From an uncultured Candidatus Cloacimonadota bacterium (GTDB lineage: Bacteria > Cloacimonadota > Cloacimonadia > Cloacimonadales > TCS61), in contig CAZAHZ010000002.1 in assembly GCA_964485055.1 (NCBI GenBank), positions 1-33,481 on the forward strand: DNA of 33,481 nucleotides, in the 5' to 3' direction. The translations under genes were made by a program, and so were the position numbers. A model generated the notes under the pieces. The model saw nothing but the letters and a program-made list of their open reading frames with translations. It searched no databases and had not been told where the DNA came from. Of this stretch, positions 1,622 through 14,934 are shown one piece after another (the first letter of the stretch is position 1; every line of letters starts with the position of its first letter).

Positions 1622-4278
<2,657 letters not shown>

Positions 4279-4287
4279 GTCGCGACC

Positions 4288-5787
4288 CTAAAACTTCAAC
4301 TTGATCTTTTCACAGATACTTTTCATTTTATTAAGTATCTCATCGGTCATCTTATCGGAAATCATTTCCTTTATAAATTCTTTGTGCTCAAGATCAAGAG
4401 TATTAAATAGTTCTTCTTCTAAAGTCTTAATTTTATCAAGCTCCACGTCATCAAGATAGCCTTGATTTGCCATAAATATAATGAAAACCTGTTTAGCAAT
4501 TTCGATCGGCTTATATTGACCTTGTTTAAGAATTTCTCTTAGTCTTTCACCCCTTTTCAATTGAGCCAGTGTGGATTTATCCAGATCACTGCCAAATTTT
4601 GCAAATGCCTGTAGTTCTGCGAATTGCGCCAAATCCAGTCTCAGTTGCTGTACAACAGCCCGCATTGCCTTAATCTGTGCACTTCCACCAACTCGAGAAA
4701 CAGACAAACCGGCATTGATAGCTGGTCTTTGCCCGGAATGGAATAATTTGCTGCTAAGGTAAATCTGTCCATCAGTTATAGAGATAACATTTGTAGGTAT
4801 ATAGGCAGAGATATCTTCAGCTTGAGTTTCAATGATCGGCAAAGCCGTCAGTGAACCGCTACCTTCTGCTTCACTAAGTTTTGAGGCTCTTTCCAGTAAT
4901 CTGGAATGAAGATAGAAAACGTCTCCAGGAAATGCTTCTCTTCCAGGAGGTCTGCGAAGAAGCAAAGAAATCTCTCTGTAAGCCACAGCATGTTTGGAGA
5001 GATCATCATATATGATCAGGGCGTGCTTGCCTCTATCTCTGAAATATTCGCCCATTGTGCAACCTGAATATGGTGCAATATAATTCATGGACGCCGGGTC
5101 AGAAGCAGAAGTGCTGATCACAATCGTATAGTCCATTGCTTTATTTTCCTGCAGCTTTTTCACAATCTTGGCAACAGAAGATTTCTTTTGACCAATAGCC
5201 ACATATATGCAGAATACATCACTATCCCGTTGATTAATGATAGTATCCACAGCGATCGCTGTTTTTCCGGTTTGTCTATCCCCGATAATCAACTCCCGCT
5301 GCCCTCGCCCAATAGGGATCATGGAATCGATTGCTTTTATCCCAGTCTGCAATGCTTCCTTCACGGGTTGTCTCTGTATCACACCTAAAGCTTTTCTTTC
5401 AATCGGCTGATATTCTTCGGCAGTGATAGCTCCCTTGCCATCCAAAGGTTCGCCCAGGGGATTTACTACACGCCCCAATAATGCTTTACCAACGGGTATC
5501 TGTAAAATTTTACCGGTTCTGCGAACAATATCACCTTCTTTAATTTCTTTTGTCTCGCCAAAAAGTATGCAACCTACACGAGACTCTTCCAGATTTAATG
5601 CCATTCCCATAATATTTGCGGGAAATTCCAGCATTTCACTTGCCATCACATTATTCAGCCCATGAACCTGAGCAATACCGTCACCTACCTGTATCACTTT
5701 CCCTGTTTCAGCTATATCAATTTCAAATTTGAAAGAACTAATTCTTTCTTTGATTATTGAGCTTATTTCGTCAGGTTGGATTTTCAT
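4288..5787 (-). CDS. atpA: F1 ATP synthase alpha subunit
   Basis: 499 aa. Walker A motif GDRQTGKT is present. Conserved alpha-subunit blocks include [46 protein letters not shown]. Confidence 0.95.
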
Positions 5788-5794
5788 CTTAACC

Positions 5795-6343
5795 TCATTT
5801 GAACTTATTTTGTTGATTATAATTTACAAATTTCCGAAGATTATTCTTAAGCGAAGCATCCACGACCATGTTTCCCGTTTCTGCATAAAATCCACCCAGA
5901 ATATCTTCATTATATTCAATTTCAGCAATTACTTCTTTTTGAAGCACCTTTTCCAGGTATTTAATTATTCTATCAGTAATTTCTTGATCCAATTCTCTTG
6001 CCAGTTTCAGTTTGACACACACAACATTCTGTTTTTCGTAAATATGATTCTCTATTTCCCTTATAATATTCACAATTTGGAGAATTCTACCGTTTTGGAT
6101 TAGCAGAAAAAAGAGTTGTTTCCACATTTCTTTGAGATTCAGTTCTTCTGTGAGAGCATCTATGATAGTAGTTTTTTTGTTTTTTCTTACCAGTCTGGTC
6201 TGCAATATTTCTATTAACTGAGGCTGCTCAGTAAATATAGCCTCTAATAAAGCAATATCCTTCAAACAATCCTTATACGCTTCTTTATCAAGCACTTCAA
6301 CAACTGATCTGGCATATCTGTTAATGATAAATGAGTCTTTCAA
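5795..6343 (-). CDS. atpH: F1 ATP synthase delta (OSCP) subunit
   Basis: 182 aa. N-terminal RYARSVVEV and C-terminal [22 protein letters not shown] match the OSCP/delta pattern. The gene sits between atpF and atpA. Confidence 0.85.
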
Positions 6344-6820
6344 CTAATCACCTTTTTTTATGATCGCTTCGATCAGTTCCTTATCCTGTTTACTATCCAC
6401 TTTTTTATTAAGTAATTTGGAAGCCAGCTCTGAAACTAATGAAGCAATTTCACCCTCTATTTCTTGTTGAGCAACTTCCTGCTTGTGCGTAATTTGCTCT
6501 TCAGTTTCTTTCATTATCTGTTTTTTTCTTTCTTTTGCTTCATCGAGTATTTCTTCTGCTTTAATTTCTGCCTCTTTTTTTGCTTTTTTAGTGAGCACTC
6601 TGATTTCTTCAGAAGATTTTTTCAATTCTTCGTTTCTTTGAGTTAATAATTCATCGGCAGCTTTATTCCTGTCTTGAGCCTGCGAAATCTCCTGCGAGAG
6701 CTTTGCCTGTCTTTCCGCCAGGAATTTTTTCATGGGTTTATAGAGCAGTTTATTGAGAATTATCAACAACAGGATAAAATTCAGAATAACGATTAACATT
6801 GAATAATCAATACTGATCAT
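6344..6820 (-). CDS. atpF: Fo ATP synthase b subunit
   Basis: 158 aa. It has a single N-terminal TM helix followed by a long, highly charged helix rich in Lys, Glu and Ala. Its position in the operon fits atpF. Confidence 0.85.
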   Translation of the reverse strand: MISIDYSMLIVILNFILLLIILNKLLYKPMKKFLAERQAKLSQEISQAQDRNKAADELLTQRNEELKKSSEEIRVLTKKAKKEAEIKAEEILDEAKERKKQIMKETEEQITHKQEVAQQEIEGEIASLVSELASKLLNKKVDSKQDKELIEAIIKKGD

Positions 6821-6861
6821 ACTTCCATCCTTAGTTGCATTTTATGAGCAGATATCACAAA

Positions 6862-7098
6862 TCAGGTTGAAAAAATTAAAAGCAAGGCAATAACCAGTGA
6901 ATAAATACCAGTAGATTCAGATACCGCCTGCCCAACCAGCATTGTTCTGGTGATCAGGCTGGCATGTTCGGGAGCTCTGGCAATACCTTCACAGGCTTTT
7001 CCAGCCACAAATCCTTCTCCAATACCAGGTCCGAGAGCTCCAATTCCCATTGCAATACCCGCACCTAAAAGAGCTGCCGCTCTTGCTAATTGATCCAT
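6862..7098 (-). CDS. atpE: Fo ATP synthase c subunit, single hairpin, with a Na+-type binding signature
   Basis: 78 aa. Helix 1 has the G-rich motif [18 protein letters not shown], the loop is RAPE, and helix 2 is [21 protein letters not shown]. An SD sequence (GGAGGAAACA) lies directly upstream of the ATG. Confidence 0.93.
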
Positions 7099-7123
7099 TG
7101 TTTCCTCCGTTTATTATTTTTGT

Positions 7124-7885
7124 TCATTTCACAGAAAATATTAATAAAAATGAGACTACCAAAGCATAAATCGCTGTAGATTGAGATACAGCAGCTCCCA
7201 GGAACATTGTCCGCATTATATGTGAGCGTTGGGCAGGATATTTCCCAACCATTCTGCAGGCTTTTCCTGCTACATTTCCTATACCTGCTCCAGGTCCTAT
7301 AGACCCTATGCCTATTGCCAGTCCAGCTCCCAAATATGCAATAGCCCTGACTAAAATACTTCCGGTAGTTAAATTTGGAATACTTGCCTGCAAAGGAGTA
7401 GAATAAAGCAGTAATAGACTGACAAGCAAAGCAAATATGCTTGAGGTTTGAGCCAATGCCTGACCAATCAGCATATATCCCAAAATTGCATTTGACTGCT
7501 TTGGCATTCTGCTGATAGCATGACAAGCCTGACCTCCTGCATAACCCGCCCCAGTTACAGGTCCCAGTGAGCCTATCCCTACGGCAATTCCCGCTGAAAA
7601 TAAGGCTGCAAATCTTAACCAACCACCTTCAACAACATTGAAGCCACCAAACATCAGCAGAAGTGCGATAACCAGCGAGAATATCCCTCCGGTTTCAGTG
7701 ACTGCCTGTCCGATAAACATTGATCGAAATAACTGATCATGAGAATCTGGTTGCCTCATTATCCCATGTGAAGCAACTCCGGCGATATAGCCAACTCCCA
7801 TTCCACAAGTGATGGAAGCTATTCCCACACTGATCCCTGCTCCCAGAAAAGCAGCTATTTGTATTGTATCCATTGTAAAATTCAT
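7124..7885 (-). CDS. Triplicated Fo c subunit (three fused hairpins, six predicted TM helices). Only hairpin 1 keeps the ion-binding Glu.
   Basis: This is a 253-aa continuous ORF. Each third aligns residue for residue to the 78-aa c subunit. The helix-1 motifs are LGAGISVGIAS, SAGIAVGIGSLGP and LGAGLAIGIGSIGPG. The loops are RQP, RMP and KYP. The helix-2 motifs are GQAVTETGGIF (E64, codon 7694-7696 GAA), GQALAQTSSIF (Q146, codon 7448-7450 CAA) and GAAVSQSTAIY (Q235, codon 7181-7183 CAA). The gene lies between atpB and atpE. A GGAG sequence sits 10 nt upstream of the ATG at 7885. Confidence 0.85.
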   Translation of the reverse strand: MNFTMDTIQIAAFLGAGISVGIASITCGMGVGYIAGVASHGIMRQPDSHDQLFRSMFIGQAVTETGGIFSLVIALLLMFGGFNVVEGGWLRFAALFSAGIAVGIGSLGPVTGAGYAGGQACHAISRMPKQSNAILGYMLIGQALAQTSSIFALLVSLLLLYSTPLQASIPNLTTGSILVRAIAYLGAGLAIGIGSIGPGAGIGNVAGKACRMVGKYPAQRSHIMRTMFLGAAVSQSTAIYALVVSFLLIFSVK

Positions 7886-7892
7886 ATTATTA

Positions 7893-9182
7893 TTACTCCG
7901 AAATCTCTACACCAATATATGTTAATGCCAGCATAGTAAATACAAATGCCTGCACGGTTCCTACAAATATCCCGAAAAACAGATTTAAACCCACTGGAAA
8001 GACAACGTAATTCACCAGGGATGAAACAACTACAATAATAATCGCACCTCCCAGAATGTTACCGAATAAACGGAATGATATTGATACCACTTTTGAAAAT
8101 TCGCTGACTATATCCAGGAGAGCCAGAGGATTTTTTATCGGATTCACATAATTTTCCAGATGTTTGAAGAAACCTTTCGTCCTGATGGCTGTAAAATGAA
8201 CTACTAATATGACAATTATTCCCATGCCGAATGGCACATTTATATTTCTGGTCGGCTCCATAAAACCTGGAAGCGGAATCAAACCTACCATATTACTTAC
8301 CCAGATAAAAAGAAATATTGTTACAATATAAGGTGTAAAATTAGCTCTCTCTTTTCCAAGAGTATCCGTGACAAATTCCTCAAAAGTATCGTAAATCATT
8401 TCTATGATTATCTGTCCTTTTGATGGTTTGGAGCTTAGACTCTTTTTGACTAGTATTATCAAAGCAAAGAAGATCAAATCAACAATTATCAAAATTCTAA
8501 TAAGATAAAACGCACTTAAAGCTGATGCTTCACCGAATAACTCCCGGAATAAATTAAATAATTTAAAACTGCCAAAAATCCTGGGGAGAAACTCTTGACG
8601 GTCCATCACTGAAGCTGGTATTATACCTTCAATTACTACTCTATTCAATCTGGCATTATCCAATATTGATGGATTTTCACGAGGATTAATGCGTTCTTGC
8701 AGCAGATATTCTTTTTCAGGCAAATCTTTGTCTATATATCCCTTAAAGGATGCTTCATAGAAGCTGTTATTACTGATCACATTCTTATTAAGCTCATTAA
8801 TTAGTTCACTTTGGTTTTCTTCAGTCCATTCCTGATCGGAGACTGCTAAATGATCCTGAAGTCGGGAATTTAATAATGAGAAACATTTTTGCATCACAGG
8901 ATTATTTCTAATCAGATAACCCTTAAATGTGCTGAAGTCCTGTATCTGAAAAAGATGGAACTTAGTACTTTTTAATAAAAACTCATCTCTTTGAAAATCT
9001 TCGGTTATTTTATCCTGAAGATCATAGTAATTTTTCACATTTCGAATTTGGAATCTTCCAGCTTCAAAGCCTATCTGCAGTTTTTTATTGAATCGGGAAC
9101 TTAGAATTACCAGGGCTAATTCTATAATAATAAATATCAGAAATACTAACTTCAGGTTACCCTGTTTCTTTGCCATTATCAC
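7893..9182 (-). CDS. atpB: Fo ATP synthase a subunit with an N-terminal extension of about 200 aa
   Basis: The C-terminal 220 aa or so form a canonical a subunit and include the essential Arg in VSISFRLFGNILGG. The N-terminal part has one TM helix (LKLVFLIFIIIELALVILS) followed by roughly 170 hydrophilic residues not found in typical 230-270 aa a subunits. Confidence 0.88.
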   Translation of the reverse strand: MIMAKKQGNLKLVFLIFIIIELALVILSSRFNKKLQIGFEAGRFQIRNVKNYYDLQDKITEDFQRDEFLLKSTKFHLFQIQDFSTFKGYLIRNNPVMQKCFSLLNSRLQDHLAVSDQEWTEENQSELINELNKNVISNNSFYEASFKGYIDKDLPEKEYLLQERINPRENPSILDNARLNRVVIEGIIPASVMDRQEFLPRIFGSFKLFNLFRELFGEASALSAFYLIRILIIVDLIFFALIILVKKSLSSKPSKGQIIIEMIYDTFEEFVTDTLGKERANFTPYIVTIFLFIWVSNMVGLIPLPGFMEPTRNINVPFGMGIIVILVVHFTAIRTKGFFKHLENYVNPIKNPLALLDIVSEFSKVVSISFRLFGNILGGAIIIVVVSSLVNYVVFPVGLNLFFGIFVGTVQAFVFTMLALTYIGVEISE

Positions 9183-9187
9183 TCCTG

Positions 9188-9553
9188 CTATTTACTGCTA
9201 CCGGGAAACCTGACGAAATATGAAATAAAAATCCATATTTGCCCGGACAGCAATCCCCCGCCGAAAATCAGGATATTCAGGCTCAAATACTTTACTGCTA
9301 ACACTGACACGATTATAAGGATCAAATAACGAATATTAAAATCCTTATAAGCTGTCAATCTTGCTTTCTTCTCACCTAAAACAAGACTCTTTTCAAGTTT
9401 CAGCGACATCAACCAGATATTGACAAGACTCAGAGTAGCTCCACAAATCCAGCTCAAGCTTTCCCTTGTCAACCAAGGCAAAAACAAAAGAGCAATTACA
9501 TTTGTCAAGCAAATTATACTCATTAATTTAATGACTAATTGTATATTTTTCAC
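9188..9553 (-). CDS. atpI: ATP synthase protein I (AtpI)-like small membrane protein
   Basis: 121 aa with about four hydrophobic segments. It lies immediately upstream of atpB, separated by 5 nt. The assignment rests on position and topology only. Confidence 0.5.
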   Translation of the reverse strand: MKNIQLVIKLMSIICLTNVIALLFLPWLTRESLSWICGATLSLVNIWLMSLKLEKSLVLGEKKARLTAYKDFNIRYLILIIVSVLAVKYLSLNILIFGGGLLSGQIWIFISYFVRFPGSSK

Positions 9554-9557
9554 TTAC

Positions 9558-9824
9558 TTAATCACTTGTTTTCATTATCTTTTTCAGCAGTTTATAACTT
9601 CCCATCATTCCAGTTGAAATACCCAGTATGATACCAGCAATCAGCCATACCTGACTAATGTTAAGTATTACTATCAGATAGCGTGCCAGAAAAAACCAGA
9701 TTACTATGCTTGATATCATCACTAAGCCCAGTTGCCCTATCAAAGCGAGAGATTGTAAAAAACCAGTATTTTTACTGCGGATTTTACTGAGCAATTGCTC
9801 CTTAACAGCATCTTTCTTTTTCAT
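9558..9824 (-). CDS. AtpZ-like small two-TM protein (the 'F0F1-ATPase subunit, Ca2+/Mg2+ transporter' family)
   Basis: 88 aa counted from the ATG at 9824; the ORF track begins 2 codons earlier at a TTG. It has two TM helices (GQLGLVMISSIVIWFFLARYL and WLIAGIILGISTGMMGSYKLL), which is typical of AtpZ proteins at the head of atp operons. Confidence 0.5.
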   Translation of the reverse strand: MKKKDAVKEQLLSKIRSKNTGFLQSLALIGQLGLVMISSIVIWFFLARYLIVILNISQVWLIAGIILGISTGMMGSYKLLKKIMKTSD

Positions 9825-9830
9825 TGGCAA

Positions 9831-12949: not shown

Positions 12950-14587
12950 ATGACGCATATAGCTCATAATTTTGAGAAACTTCCTATAGACGTCCTTTTC
13001 GTTGAAGACGAAAAGTTGATGCGGAATTCTATTGCGGAAATTATGAGGAGACGTGTTAATAAAGTCTTTGTAGCTGATAATGGTCAAATGGGTTTGGAAC
13101 TATACAAATTGCATCACCCACAAGTAATTTTAACTGATATTCGCATGCCTGTAATGACAGGTTTAGAAATGTTGCAGGAAATCAGGAAAGAAGATGATAA
13201 TACAAAAGTGATTATCATCTCTGCCCATAGTGATACTGAATATTTTCAGAAAGCTATTAATTTGGGAGTTGATGGTTTTCTTCTTAAGCCTGTTAATGTT
13301 GAAATGGTTATCAAGCAGGTTATCAAAGTCACACGCCAGCTTGTATATCAACAGAAAGCTCTCGAATTTGAAGATAAACTACGCAATTTGAATGATCTGA
13401 TCTTTCAAAATAAGACCAGGGCTGCTTATATGCAGGCTTCCATGGCTCCATCCTGGCTGATTTCTGAAAAGAAAATCTTTTTCTCTTCCAATTATATCGT
13501 TAATGAAACCACTCCCAGTGGAGATTTCTTTGATATAATACCTATTTCCGAAACCAGATATATCACTTATCTTGGTCATTTCCCTCATCACGATATCAAG
13601 GGAACTCTCTTTATGCTGACCATTAAGATGACACTAGATACTATTATAAAAAATGAATTCGAACATGCTTCTCCAGGGATTATCCTTGATCGCTTAGTAA
13701 GCATAGTGGGTTCGCAGAATATTTCTGATAACATCGAATTACTTATTTGTCTGATAGACTCGGATTTCGAGTTTGTTCGCTATGCCAAAATCGGCTCTGT
13801 AAACATTCTCCAATATGACACTGAAAAACGAGATTTTTGCACGCTTGCTAAATCAGAAAGTTCACTCTCTACAGACGAGACTGATATTCACAGAAGCTCT
13901 TTTCAGGAATCTGAGTTTTCTTTTAATGAAGATAAATTAACTTTTATCTTTTCCCGTAATCTGAAAAATTATCATAAAAACGGAGATATCATGGGAATCG
14001 ATGGAATAAAGAGCATTCTTATAGGGATCAAAGATACTAATTCCTTCCTTATTCCATATAAGTTCAGGCATGATCTGATCAATCAGGGCTATAAATTCAC
14101 GACCTCAGATTTTTCTTTCCTGCTTTTTAGAACCAATAACCTCATTCAGAATTATGATAATCGTATTCTGGTCACTTTCAAATCTGTTCTTACTAATACC
14201 GGTCGCATCCGAAAAGATTGCGAGAAATTTGTCTTGAAAAAAACTGATCTCGATGAACTTGCCTTTCAAGTTGAATTGGTGATTGCTGAATTACTCACTA
14301 ATGTAATCATCCATGGACTAAAGAATAAACCGGATACTATGGTCGTGCTGTCTTTGGAAATTTTTGACCAAGCCGTCATTAGTGTCTGGGATAAAGGTAT
14401 TGAATGGATTTTACCTGACTTAAAGAAAGAAGAAGCTTTTAACTTCGTTGAAAATGATGCCACTTCTGGACGCGGTCTTCCTATTATTGTCAGCCTTTCT
14501 GATAAAATTGATCGCCGTAGAATTGATAATATCAACCAAACTATAATTTATTTCAATATTGTTCCTGATAAGGAGAGCTTATGCTAA
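12950..14587 (+). CDS. Multidomain partner-switching regulator: a REC receiver, a PP2C/SpoIIE-like domain that may be degenerate, and an RsbW/SpoIIAB-like serine kinase (HATPase_c)
   Basis: REC covers about aa 13-128: acidic pocket VEDE, phospho-acceptor D63 in ILTDIRMP, S91, and K113 in LLKP. The middle domain contains PSGDFFD (compare GGDFYD of SpoIIE-type phosphatases), followed by LGHFPHHDIKG in place of GDVSGHG. The C-terminal domain has the N-box ELLTNVIIHG, VWDKG (G1) and SGRGLPII (G2), as in anti-sigma-factor kinases. Confidence 0.75.
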   Translation: MTHIAHNFEKLPIDVLFVEDEKLMRNSIAEIMRRRVNKVFVADNGQMGLELYKLHHPQVILTDIRMPVMTGLEMLQEIRKEDDNTKVIIISAHSDTEYFQKAINLGVDGFLLKPVNVEMVIKQVIKVTRQLVYQQKALEFEDKLRNLNDLIFQNKTRAAYMQASMAPSWLISEKKIFFSSNYIVNETTPSGDFFDIIPISETRYITYLGHFPHHDIKGTLFMLTIKMTLDTIIKNEFEHASPGIILDRLVSIVGSQNISDNIELLICLIDSDFEFVRYAKIGSVNILQYDTEKRDFCTLAKSESSLSTDETDIHRSSFQESEFSFNEDKLTFIFSRNLKNYHKNGDIMGIDGIKSILIGIKDTNSFLIPYKFRHDLINQGYKFTTSDFSFLLFRTNNLIQNYDNRILVTFKSVLTNTGRIRKDCEKFVLKKTDLDELAFQVELVIAELLTNVIIHGLKNKPDTMVVLSLEIFDQAVISVWDKGIEWILPDLKKEEAFNFVENDATSGRGLPIIVSLSDKIDRRRIDNINQTIIYFNIVPDKESLC

Positions 14588-14934
14588 ATATTACCTTCAA
14601 CCTACATGAAGACATCGGAATTGTTAAAATTAGCGGTGAACTTGATGCTTCTAATTCTAAAGATCTTAGAAAAGCCTTTGATGACTACTTTTTGAGAACT
14701 TCCAAATTTATTCTGGATTTCTCTGAACTCCAATTTATGGATAGTACGGGACTTGGCACTATTATTAGAATTTACAAACATACAGAACTTAAGAATGGTT
14801 ATCTCTGTATTGCCAATCCCAAAAATAAAGCTGCCCGGGTACTCAAAATGACCCAGGCTCATAAAGTTATTAATATCTATGACACTCTTGATGAGGCTTT
14901 GTTAAGTATGACAGGCTCTTCGGAAAACGAATGA
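14581..14934 (+). CDS. STAS-domain anti-sigma-factor antagonist (RsbV/SpoIIAA-like)
   Basis: 117 aa. It carries LQFMDSTGLGTII, the conserved DS(S/T)GLG phosphorylation loop. Its start overlaps the stop of the upstream kinase-fusion gene by 7 nt. Confidence 0.85.
   Translation: MLNITFNLHEDIGIVKISGELDASNSKDLRKAFDDYFLRTSKFILDFSELQFMDSTGLGTIIRIYKHTELKNGYLCIANPKNKAARVLKMTQAHKVINIYDTLDEALLSMTGSSENE

Follow-up and report, generated by a model that had tools for sequence, protein, structure and literature searches.

An uncultured Candidatus Cloacimonadota bacterium carries, within the operon of its F1Fo adenosine triphosphate (ATP) synthase, a gene in which three c-subunit hairpins are fused in one reading frame and only one of them retains the ion-binding carboxylate. 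The gene, here called c3, occupies positions 7124-7885 of the minus strand of the analysed DNA (33,481 nucleotides (nt), contig CAZAHZ010000002.1 of assembly GCA_964485055.1; hereafter the window). It is an uninterrupted open reading frame (ORF) for a protein of 253 amino acids (aa) with six transmembrane helices, and is located between atpB and the gene of an ordinary one-hairpin c subunit of 78 aa (atpE; 6862-7098, minus strand; PF00137). We consider it probable, at roughly 0.6, that c3 is a rotor subunit of a sodium-coupled F1Fo enzyme, co-assembling with the one-hairpin subunits (monomers) into a mixed ring with a lower Na+/ATP ratio.

The number of ion sites in the c ring sets the ion cost per ATP, a basic bioenergetic parameter, and determines if ATP synthesis is feasible at all for organisms living close to the thermodynamic limit. 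Previously, only the F-type enzyme of the Acetobacterium woodii kind was known to cut its sites by means of a fused c subunit, with two hairpins and one missing site per ring. With c3, uncultivated anaerobes go further, to three hairpins and two missing sites. The design recurs, with up to six hairpins, in Cloacimonadota, Desulfobacterales, other Thermodesulfobacteriota, Latescibacterota, Methylomirabilis, Hydrogenedentota and others, and the number of sites switches repeatedly inside one phylum. These sequences have long been public under a generic name: in the databases, relatives of c3 bear no label beyond 'ATP synthase F0 subunit C', and a standard enzyme is taken for granted when the metabolism of these phyla is reconstructed.

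A preliminary description of the window had stated that no triple hairpin with one site in three was known to its author from a delta-containing bacterial F-type operon. In agreement with this, a literature search turned up no report of any F-type c subunit from bacteria that has at least three hairpins, a brief earlier mention being possible. The only cases found were the two-hairpin c1 of A. woodii and Clostridium aceticum and the multi-hairpin c subunits of archaea, and the papers found on Cloacimonadota metabolism mention merely an 'F-type ATP synthase'. Fused rotor subunits with reduced sites are already known; the F-type form with at least three hairpins is apparently new.

Architecture, Ion Sites and Fold of c3

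The atp genes were assigned with Pfam and NCBIfam models at curated cut-offs. They form a complete F-type operon, delta (OSCP) included, in the order atpZ-I-B-c3-c-F-H-A-G-D-C (1622-9830, minus strand). Within it, PF00137 matches c3 in three separate stretches (142 bits against a cut-off of 24; E 6.4e-42), and the NCBIfam models for F0F1 subunit C also give three matches (TIGR01260, 91.5 against 43.95; NF005521, 167 against 122). Hairpin 1 comprises approximately residues 1-84 (7634-7885), hairpin 2 residues 88-165 (7391-7624), and hairpin 3 residues 175-253 (7127-7363), all on the minus strand. The three align column for column with the 78-aa monomer and with the c subunit of Ilyobacter tartaricus, and all retain the cytoplasmic R/K-x-P loop and the small-residue motif of helix 1. 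They are genuine F-type c hairpins, three in one chain. The preliminary description had read c3 in this way, as a triple c subunit between atpB and atpE in a canonical delta-containing F-type operon, and both statements are borne out by the models and the alignment.

In the column of I. tartaricus E65, hairpin 1 has E64 (GAA, nt 7694-7696), while hairpins 2 and 3 have Q146 (CAA, nt 7448-7450) and Q235 (CAA, nt 7181-7183). The column of the helix-1 ligand (Q32 in I. tartaricus, E28 in the window monomer) is occupied by V31, A113 and I202 in hairpins 1 to 3. Alignment and raw sequence thus agree with what had been reported before, namely a single carboxylate, two glutamines encoded by CAA at the equivalent positions, and the loss of the helix-1 Glu to V, A and I. 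The preliminary description had also named a finding that would speak against it, a different acid at the ion site of hairpin 2 or 3. None was found: the complete list of acidic residues in c3 is D6, D47, D50 (loop), E64 and E86 (linker), so that no other membrane carboxylate is available in hairpins 2 and 3. One helix-2 membrane carboxylate per hairpin is the usual mark of c subunits; c3 has it in hairpin 1 only. As for the remaining Na+ ligands (Q/E32, E65, S/T66, T67 and Y70 as the full set), the monomer is complete, E-V-E-S-T-Y (E28 ... V-E61-S-T ... Y66), whereas hairpin 1 of c3 has a partial set, V-V-E-T-G-F (V31 / E64-T65-G66 / F69). Hairpin 3 retains the S-T-x-x-Y part of the sodium motif.

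The hairpins of c3 are 38-41% identical to one another, 47-59% identical to their own monomer, with hairpin 3 as the most monomer-like (59%), and 35-47% identical to the hairpins of A. woodii. An AlphaFold2 model of c3 based on an alignment of 106 homologues has six long helices arranged in three hairpins, with a mean predicted local distance difference test score (pLDDT) of 94.5 and a predicted template modelling score (pTM) of 0.88. A single-sequence run was uninformative (pLDDT 51).

Conservation and Site Variation in Cloacimonadota

A search of 5.8 billion proteins returned 580 matches, of which the best 120 were inspected. According to our own hidden Markov model (HMM) of the hairpin, 108 of these 120 contain three hairpins, and 106 of them, with 238-256 aa, constitute the triple-c family described here. 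All members with source names come from metagenome-assembled genomes (MAGs) of Candidatus Cloacimonadota/Cloacimonetes. The homologues originate from independent NCBI, JGI, ENA and Logan assemblies and share the same length, therefore c3 is not an assembly error. Synteny is also preserved, since three related loci (L001, L085 and L086) share the order gidB-parA-parB-M23 peptidase-atpZ-I-B-c3-c-F-H-A-G-D-C. Compared with its counterpart in L085, c3 is 89% identical at the protein level and the ratio of nonsynonymous to synonymous substitution rates (dN/dS) is 0.053, with dS saturated; atpA (87%) and atpD (88%) are conserved to a similar extent. The monomer is still more constrained: it is 100% identical to that of L085 (dN/dS 0.006) and 88-93% identical within Cloacimonadota. 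Across the 106 triple-c sequences, 40 alignment columns are invariant, the packing glycines and loop prolines among them. Identities at the level of single hairpins indicate positional orthology within Cloacimonadota, the last hairpin being always the nearest to the monomer.

All this bears on the suspicion that c3 might result from misassembly of tandemly arranged c genes, or might be a decaying, nonfunctional duplicate. Two of the three carboxylates are gone and the hairpins have diverged further than the monomer has, as such an origin would allow. Against it stand the uninterrupted ORF, the 106 homologues of equal length from independent assemblies, dN/dS values of about 0.03-0.05 with saturated dS, the 40 invariant columns and the confident AlphaFold2 model. 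A collapsed recent repeat is excluded because the hairpins are only 38-41% identical to each other. Misassembly and pseudogene were both rejected on the conservation data and dN/dS, and we give them next to no credence; c3 is a real gene under purifying selection.

The ion sites themselves vary. Among the 106 triple-c proteins, the site residue of hairpin 1 is E in 55, Q in 41 and G in 10, that of hairpin 2 is Q in 105, and that of hairpin 3 is E in 86 and Q in 20. One carboxylate is present in 53 of the proteins, two in 43, none in nine and three in a single one; E-Q-E (43/106) is the commonest two-site pattern. The nine proteins without any carboxylate (Q/G-Q-Q) are P0066, P0068, P0086, P0035, P0090, P0094, P0103, P0018 and P0040, the first of which is encoded at 6001-6750 of L001 in an atp operon that is otherwise intact. 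On a neighbour-joining tree from which the site columns had been left out, the most parsimonious history takes at least 7 changes for hairpin 1 and at least 8 for hairpin 3. The window protein falls within a small E-Q-Q clade (P0001-P0009 and P0014). The 'one site in three' of the preliminary description is therefore right for c3 of the window and wrong as a feature of the family: with 0, 1, 2 or 3 carboxylates among the relatives, it is one setting of a variable character. Nor is the architecture rare, being typical of the F-type operons of Cloacimonadota and part of a class with 3-6 hairpins found in several phyla. The switches between E and Q in hairpins 1 and 3 across the phylum look like evolutionary tuning of the ion ratio.

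Comparison with Known Rotor Subunits

The best match of c3 in the PDB, in sequence as well as in fold, is the c1 subunit of the A. woodii F/V-hybrid rotor, a proven member of its ring (4bem_J; phmmer E 2e-27; Foldseek E 2.8e-8, with a template modelling score of 0.80 normalised to the target). This chain aligns to hairpins 1-2 only, with the identical Glu-then-Gln order, and no chain in the PDB covers all three hairpins of c3. The best structural-database matches of hairpin 3 are the single-hairpin sodium-type c subunits of A. woodii (c2), Fusobacterium nucleatum and I. tartaricus. In A. woodii and C. aceticum the genes are likewise arranged as atpB, multi-hairpin c, single-hairpin c (PMC7911925), and the A. 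woodii ring is heteromeric, with nine one-hairpin c subunits and one c1 (PMC9171764; PMC7911925). The parallel with c1 drawn in the preliminary description is thus well founded in structure match, residue order and gene order. In both cases the operon is of F-type with delta, the fused gene follows atpB and precedes a single-hairpin c gene, the carboxylate is in hairpin 1 and Gln in hairpin 2 (AQTT in c1), and the organism is a sodium-coupled anaerobe based on Rnf. Unlike c1, with its two hairpins and one site, c3 has three hairpins, one site and two adjacent neutral positions, and the window monomer has the two-carboxylate motif E...EST where A. woodii has Q...ET. The likeness is one of design and not of descent. 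The hairpins of c1 are 70-71% identical to A. woodii c2, against 35-46% between the hairpins of c1 and those of c3, therefore the multiplication in c3 is older and independent; orthology of the two was rejected on the matrix of hairpin identities.

The A1Ao proteolipid of Methanocaldococcus jannaschii has three hairpins and two carboxylates and forms a homomeric ring. As in c3, a single polypeptide contains three hairpins, not all of which bear a carboxylate, and the site count of the archaeal protein, two in three, equals the E-Q-E pattern of the Cloacimonadota relatives. The M. jannaschii protein is of A/V-type, belongs to an A-type operon and has two sites, whereas c3 is of F-type, has one site and is paired with a monomer. 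A similar comparison applies to the V-type c/K subunits (Enterococcus hirae NtpK, 2BL2; eukaryotic c, c' and c''), in which duplicated hairpins share one carboxylate per two. They match two of the three c3 hairpins structurally, but they form a separate sequence family with 22-24% identity, occur in V-type operons and have only two hairpins. V-type K models score far below their cut-off on c3 (NF004913, 220 positions, 68 against 211), while the F0F1-C models reach up to 167 bits. An archaeal or V-type origin of c3 was consequently rejected, given that the F-type models clearly win and that the operon contains delta and epsilon. In 2022 the Muller laboratory assigned c subunits with 1, 2, 3 or 13 hairpins to archaea only (PMC9171764).

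Regarding the monomer, its E28 ... E61-S-T ... Y66 arrangement corresponds to the E32 / E65-S66-T67 / Y70 pattern of F. nucleatum c, to which it is 60% identical. To our knowledge, F. nucleatum has no fused c subunit and its ring is homomeric. Fused F-type c subunits have also been made artificially, as dimers and trimers in Escherichia coli and from c2 to c10 in Bacillus PS3, and such constructs demonstrate that hairpins joined covalently can be accepted into a functional F-type ring; the E. coli trimers work. These fusions are artificial and normally all their hairpins bear carboxylates, whereas the c3 fusion is natural and ancient and has lost sites. Structural data on the F. nucleatum subunit (PDB 3ZK1; PMC3692424) and related work on engineered c fusions (PMC8809890) are available.

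A Mixed Ring with Fewer Sodium Sites as the Probable Role

Cloacimonadota have been described as anaerobic fermenters or syntrophs with Rnf and a Na+ F-type ATP synthase (PMC8542988; PMC12590816). According to one proposal, fewer sites at constant ring size are an adaptation to conditions in which driving force and phosphorylation potential are low (PMC9171764). Under the proposed mechanism, several 78-aa monomers and c3 would form a hetero-oligomeric c ring, in the manner of A. woodii c1 and c2/3. Each copy of c3 would occupy three ring positions and contribute one ion-carrying carboxylate (E64), while the neutral Q146 and Q235 would pass the stator arginine without an ion. Ring diameter and the contacts with gamma and epsilon would stay unchanged; there would be fewer Na+ per turn and therefore fewer Na+ per ATP. 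As an illustration, a ring of 11 hairpins made of c3 and eight monomers would have 9 sites and use 3.0 Na+/ATP, compared with 3.7 for eleven monomers. In a low-energy, Rnf-dependent fermenter or syntroph, this could allow ATP synthesis at a low phosphorylation potential, and in reverse operation the enzyme would build a steeper Na+ gradient per ATP. Testable predictions follow for three quantities: the ratio of the subunits within the ring, the number of Na+ per ATP, and the driving force at threshold.

Mixing with monomers is favoured because the extremely conserved monomer gene is found next to the fused gene in every case, and because the lost sites are replaced by the isosteric Gln, as in A. 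woodii c1 (PMC7911925). Besides, the nine triple-c proteins without any carboxylate could only work when mixed with monomers. Translation signals point in a compatible direction. The monomer has a strong Shine-Dalgarno sequence, GGAGG (7104-7108, minus strand), 5 nt upstream of its ATG, whereas that of c3 is a weak GGAG (about 7896-7899, minus strand) located 10 nt upstream and overlapping the end of atpB. The same contrast between a strong monomer GGAGG and a weak or atpB-overlapping fused-gene sequence is present in six of six operons (window, L085, L086, L001, L002 and L004), which would fit an excess of monomer.

Several points weigh against this role. The Shine-Dalgarno argument for the stoichiometry is weak, and we infer ring entry, stoichiometry, ion specificity and physiological direction. 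Compared with the classical sodium site, hairpin 1 of c3 has V31 in place of the helix-1 Q/E ligand and F69 in place of the Tyr, therefore its one site may bind ions weakly or in another manner; the E-Q-Q relatives closest to it (P0003-P0007 and P0009) have Glu at the helix-1 position, unlike c3 of the window. Two consecutive neutral hairpins (Q146 and Q235) are without a characterised F-type precedent, A. woodii having one. Work on engineered fused c subunits in other bacteria suggests that coupling can be crippled when carboxylates are neutralised. Finally, the view is limited to 33 kb of the genome, and a second ATPase may exist elsewhere.

Two other roles have been considered. In one, c3 would form a ring of its own, for instance of four copies with 12 hairpins and 4 sites, so that a single operon would offer two gear settings: a c3 ring acting as an ATP-driven Na+ pump with a very low ion/ATP ratio, and an all-monomer ring synthesising ATP. 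The protein has all the ring-packing features in its alignment and AlphaFold2 model, the E. hirae K ring (2bl2) is among its fold matches, V-type and archaeal multi-hairpin subunits do form homomeric rings, and the functional c trimers of E. coli mentioned above are in its favour as well. Nevertheless, no working homomeric ring is possible for the nine of 106 orthologues without a carboxylate, the adjacent monomer gene is always present, the Shine-Dalgarno sequence of c3 is weak, and the only characterised F-type case, that of A. woodii, is reported to combine nine one-hairpin subunits with one c1 in a mixed ring (PMC9171764). We regard a homomeric ring as unlikely.

In the other, c3 would enter the ring with a main role different from the ion ratio, either as an assembly nucleus that fixes ring size or as a detent that slows wasteful ATP hydrolysis or ion slip at low sodium-motive force. 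The numbers of hairpins (3 to 6) and of carboxylates (0 to 3) vary while the monomer is nearly invariant, which suggests that the presence of the fused block, and not its exact site count, is what has been selected; that hairpin 2 is neutral in 105 of 106 relatives points the same way. On the contrary, no known F-type assembly pathway needs a nucleus, and the usual assembly factor, atpI, is present. Moreover, any neutral hairpin in the ring alters the ion ratio regardless, so that a nucleus or detent would overlap with the mixed low-ratio ring instead of replacing it. As the principal function of c3, it appears improbable to us.

A Wider Class of Multi-Hairpin F-Type c Genes

One genome per GTDB species was scanned with an alignment of the longer relatives as query, which yielded 80 loci. 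Most belong to Desulfobacterales, mainly with 4 hairpins and some with 5. Other Thermodesulfobacteriota MAGs have 3 to 6 hairpins, Nitrospinaceae and Hydrogenedentota have 4, and the loci of Latescibacterota, Methylomirabilis, Armatimonadota and Cloacimonadota have 3, as has an unclassified MAG named 'bacterium bin47' (L083). In the 84 related loci and the window, without exception, the multi-hairpin c gene is directly followed by a single-hairpin c gene, and in nearly all of the 84 the monomer has the site E-V-E-S-T-Y, the sodium motif with two carboxylates known from F. nucleatum. The fused proteins also follow a common pattern, in which the first hairpin is usually E...E, the middle ones have Q and the last one has E or Q. 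Lost sites are nearly always Gln, an isosteric neutral replacement. E-Q-Q triples outside Cloacimonadota occur in L067, L075 and L078.

With regard to the genomic context, full F1Fo operons surround the fused gene in Cloacimonadota, Latescibacterota, Methylomirabilis and Hydrogenedentota and in the six-hairpin loci. In the Desulfobacterales loci (L005-L060 and L068-L071), atpB is directly upstream and no F1 gene was seen in the downstream DNA covered, approximately 1-7.5 kb for each locus. Similarly, the genes called in the five-hairpin locus L004 are atpI-B-c5-c-b'-b, followed by unrelated genes. An ectopic duplicate Fo set was noted in Desulfococcus oleovorans in an older paper (PMC4154653), and Desulfobacterales with such loci may have two alternative Fo sectors for one F1.

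A HMMER search of 1.84 billion cluster representatives gave 1347 matches. Of these, the best 148 new representatives were classified; 48 have three hairpins, 63 have four and four have five. Judged from the 77 columns compared at the hairpin level, the 3-, 4-, 5- and 6-hairpin proteins of the different phyla may have one origin or several.

Tentatively, and with less conviction than for the role of c3 itself, these genes may represent a class of naturally fused rotor subunits of F-type, widespread and so far undescribed, with 3-6 hairpins and 0-3 carboxylates, always accompanied by an invariant sodium-type monomer. Their rings would have 2-5 consecutive positions without a site and a Na+/ATP ratio of about 2-3, well below that of any measured F-type synthase, tuned by E/Q exchange over evolution at fixed ring size. 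If true, this would challenge the view that every F-type c position must carry an ion for coupling, and would offer a tangible approach to the question of how small the 'minimum energy quantum' of syntrophs and fermenters is.

Some individual loci deserve mention. The most extreme site reduction seen is that of L061 (5910-7477) and L065 (1829-3136), both from Thermodesulfobacteriota MAGs, where six hairpins share a single carboxylate (E-Q-Q-Q-Q-Q) in full F1Fo operons, each with a monomer gene behind. In the Latescibacterota triple-c proteins of L066, L073 and L074, the carboxylate position of the last hairpin holds Ile or His and not Gln. Two monomer c genes follow the four-hairpin gene in L024 (about 6975-7600), as the genes of two one-hairpin subunits, there named c2 and c3, do in A. 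woodii, and L072 encodes a two-hairpin c subunit with a complete E-V-E-S-T-Y site in both hairpins. A second, more distant four-hairpin family (about 30% identity, about 315-321 aa; P0165, P0167, P0176, P0182 and some 40 further representatives) has the sites Q-E-T / S-Q-T-P-F / L-E-T-P-F / S-D-T-x-Y, with Asp in the last hairpin. Nearly all hairpins retain Glu in three longer proteins, P0201 (524 aa, 7 hairpins), P0214 (968 aa, 11 hairpins) and P0232 (1139 aa, 15 hairpins), which may be archaeal single-chain rotors of the Methanopyrus type.

The Remaining Genes of the Operon and Its Surroundings

All atp genes of the window are encoded on the minus strand. Upstream of c3, atpB (7893-9182) encodes a subunit a of 429 aa, with PF00119 at residues 231-423 and the stator arginine motif SFRLFGNILGG. 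In its N-terminal part of about 230 aa (8490-9182), a single hydrophobic stretch is predicted close to the start, and neither Pfam nor NCBIfam gave a match; the subunit-a models cover only residues 226-428 or so. This long form is kept in the close relatives L085 and L086 (427 aa); subunit a has 296 aa in L001 and a normal 224-227 aa in the operons with 4 and 5 hairpins. Further upstream are atpI (9188-9553; PF03899) and an atpZ-like gene (9558-9830), which matches PF09527 (ATPase_gene1) with a score slightly below the curated cut-off; the same model is found on the corresponding gene in L001 and L085.

Downstream of the monomer gene, atpF (subunit b; 6344-6820) was identified by PF00430, atpH (delta/OSCP; 5795-6343) by PF00213 (E 5e-30), atpA (alpha; 4288-5787) by TIGR00962 (809 bits against 484), atpG (gamma; 3421-4278) by TIGR01146 (301 bits against 194), and atpC (epsilon; 1622-2014) by TIGR01216 and NF009980, both above their cut-offs. 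The beta subunit gene, atpD (2007-3458; TIGR01039, 825 bits), is listed with a TTG start and a 38-nt overlap with atpG. The model match begins at residue 20 and the homologues have 463-466 aa; translation probably begins some 18 codons after the TTG, at the ATG of 'MNGKLIQ...'. Assignment of the operon to the N-ATPase ('alternate F1F0') group was rejected: TIGR03322 reaches 127 against 130.85 even when the three hairpins are summed, TIGR03324, TIGR03305 and TIGR03306 remain below their cut-offs, the standard atpA and atpD models are far above theirs, and delta is present. A promoter and terminator scan across the operon gave no more matches than in shuffled sequence.

On the plus strand, at 12950-14934 and adjoining the gidB-parA-parB-atp block, there is a gene for a 545-aa response-regulator fusion protein, followed by one for a 117-aa protein that, by eye, is similar to STAS-type anti-sigma-factor antagonists. 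A 539-aa homologue of the fusion protein, with PF00072 and PF13581, is found in the same place in L086.

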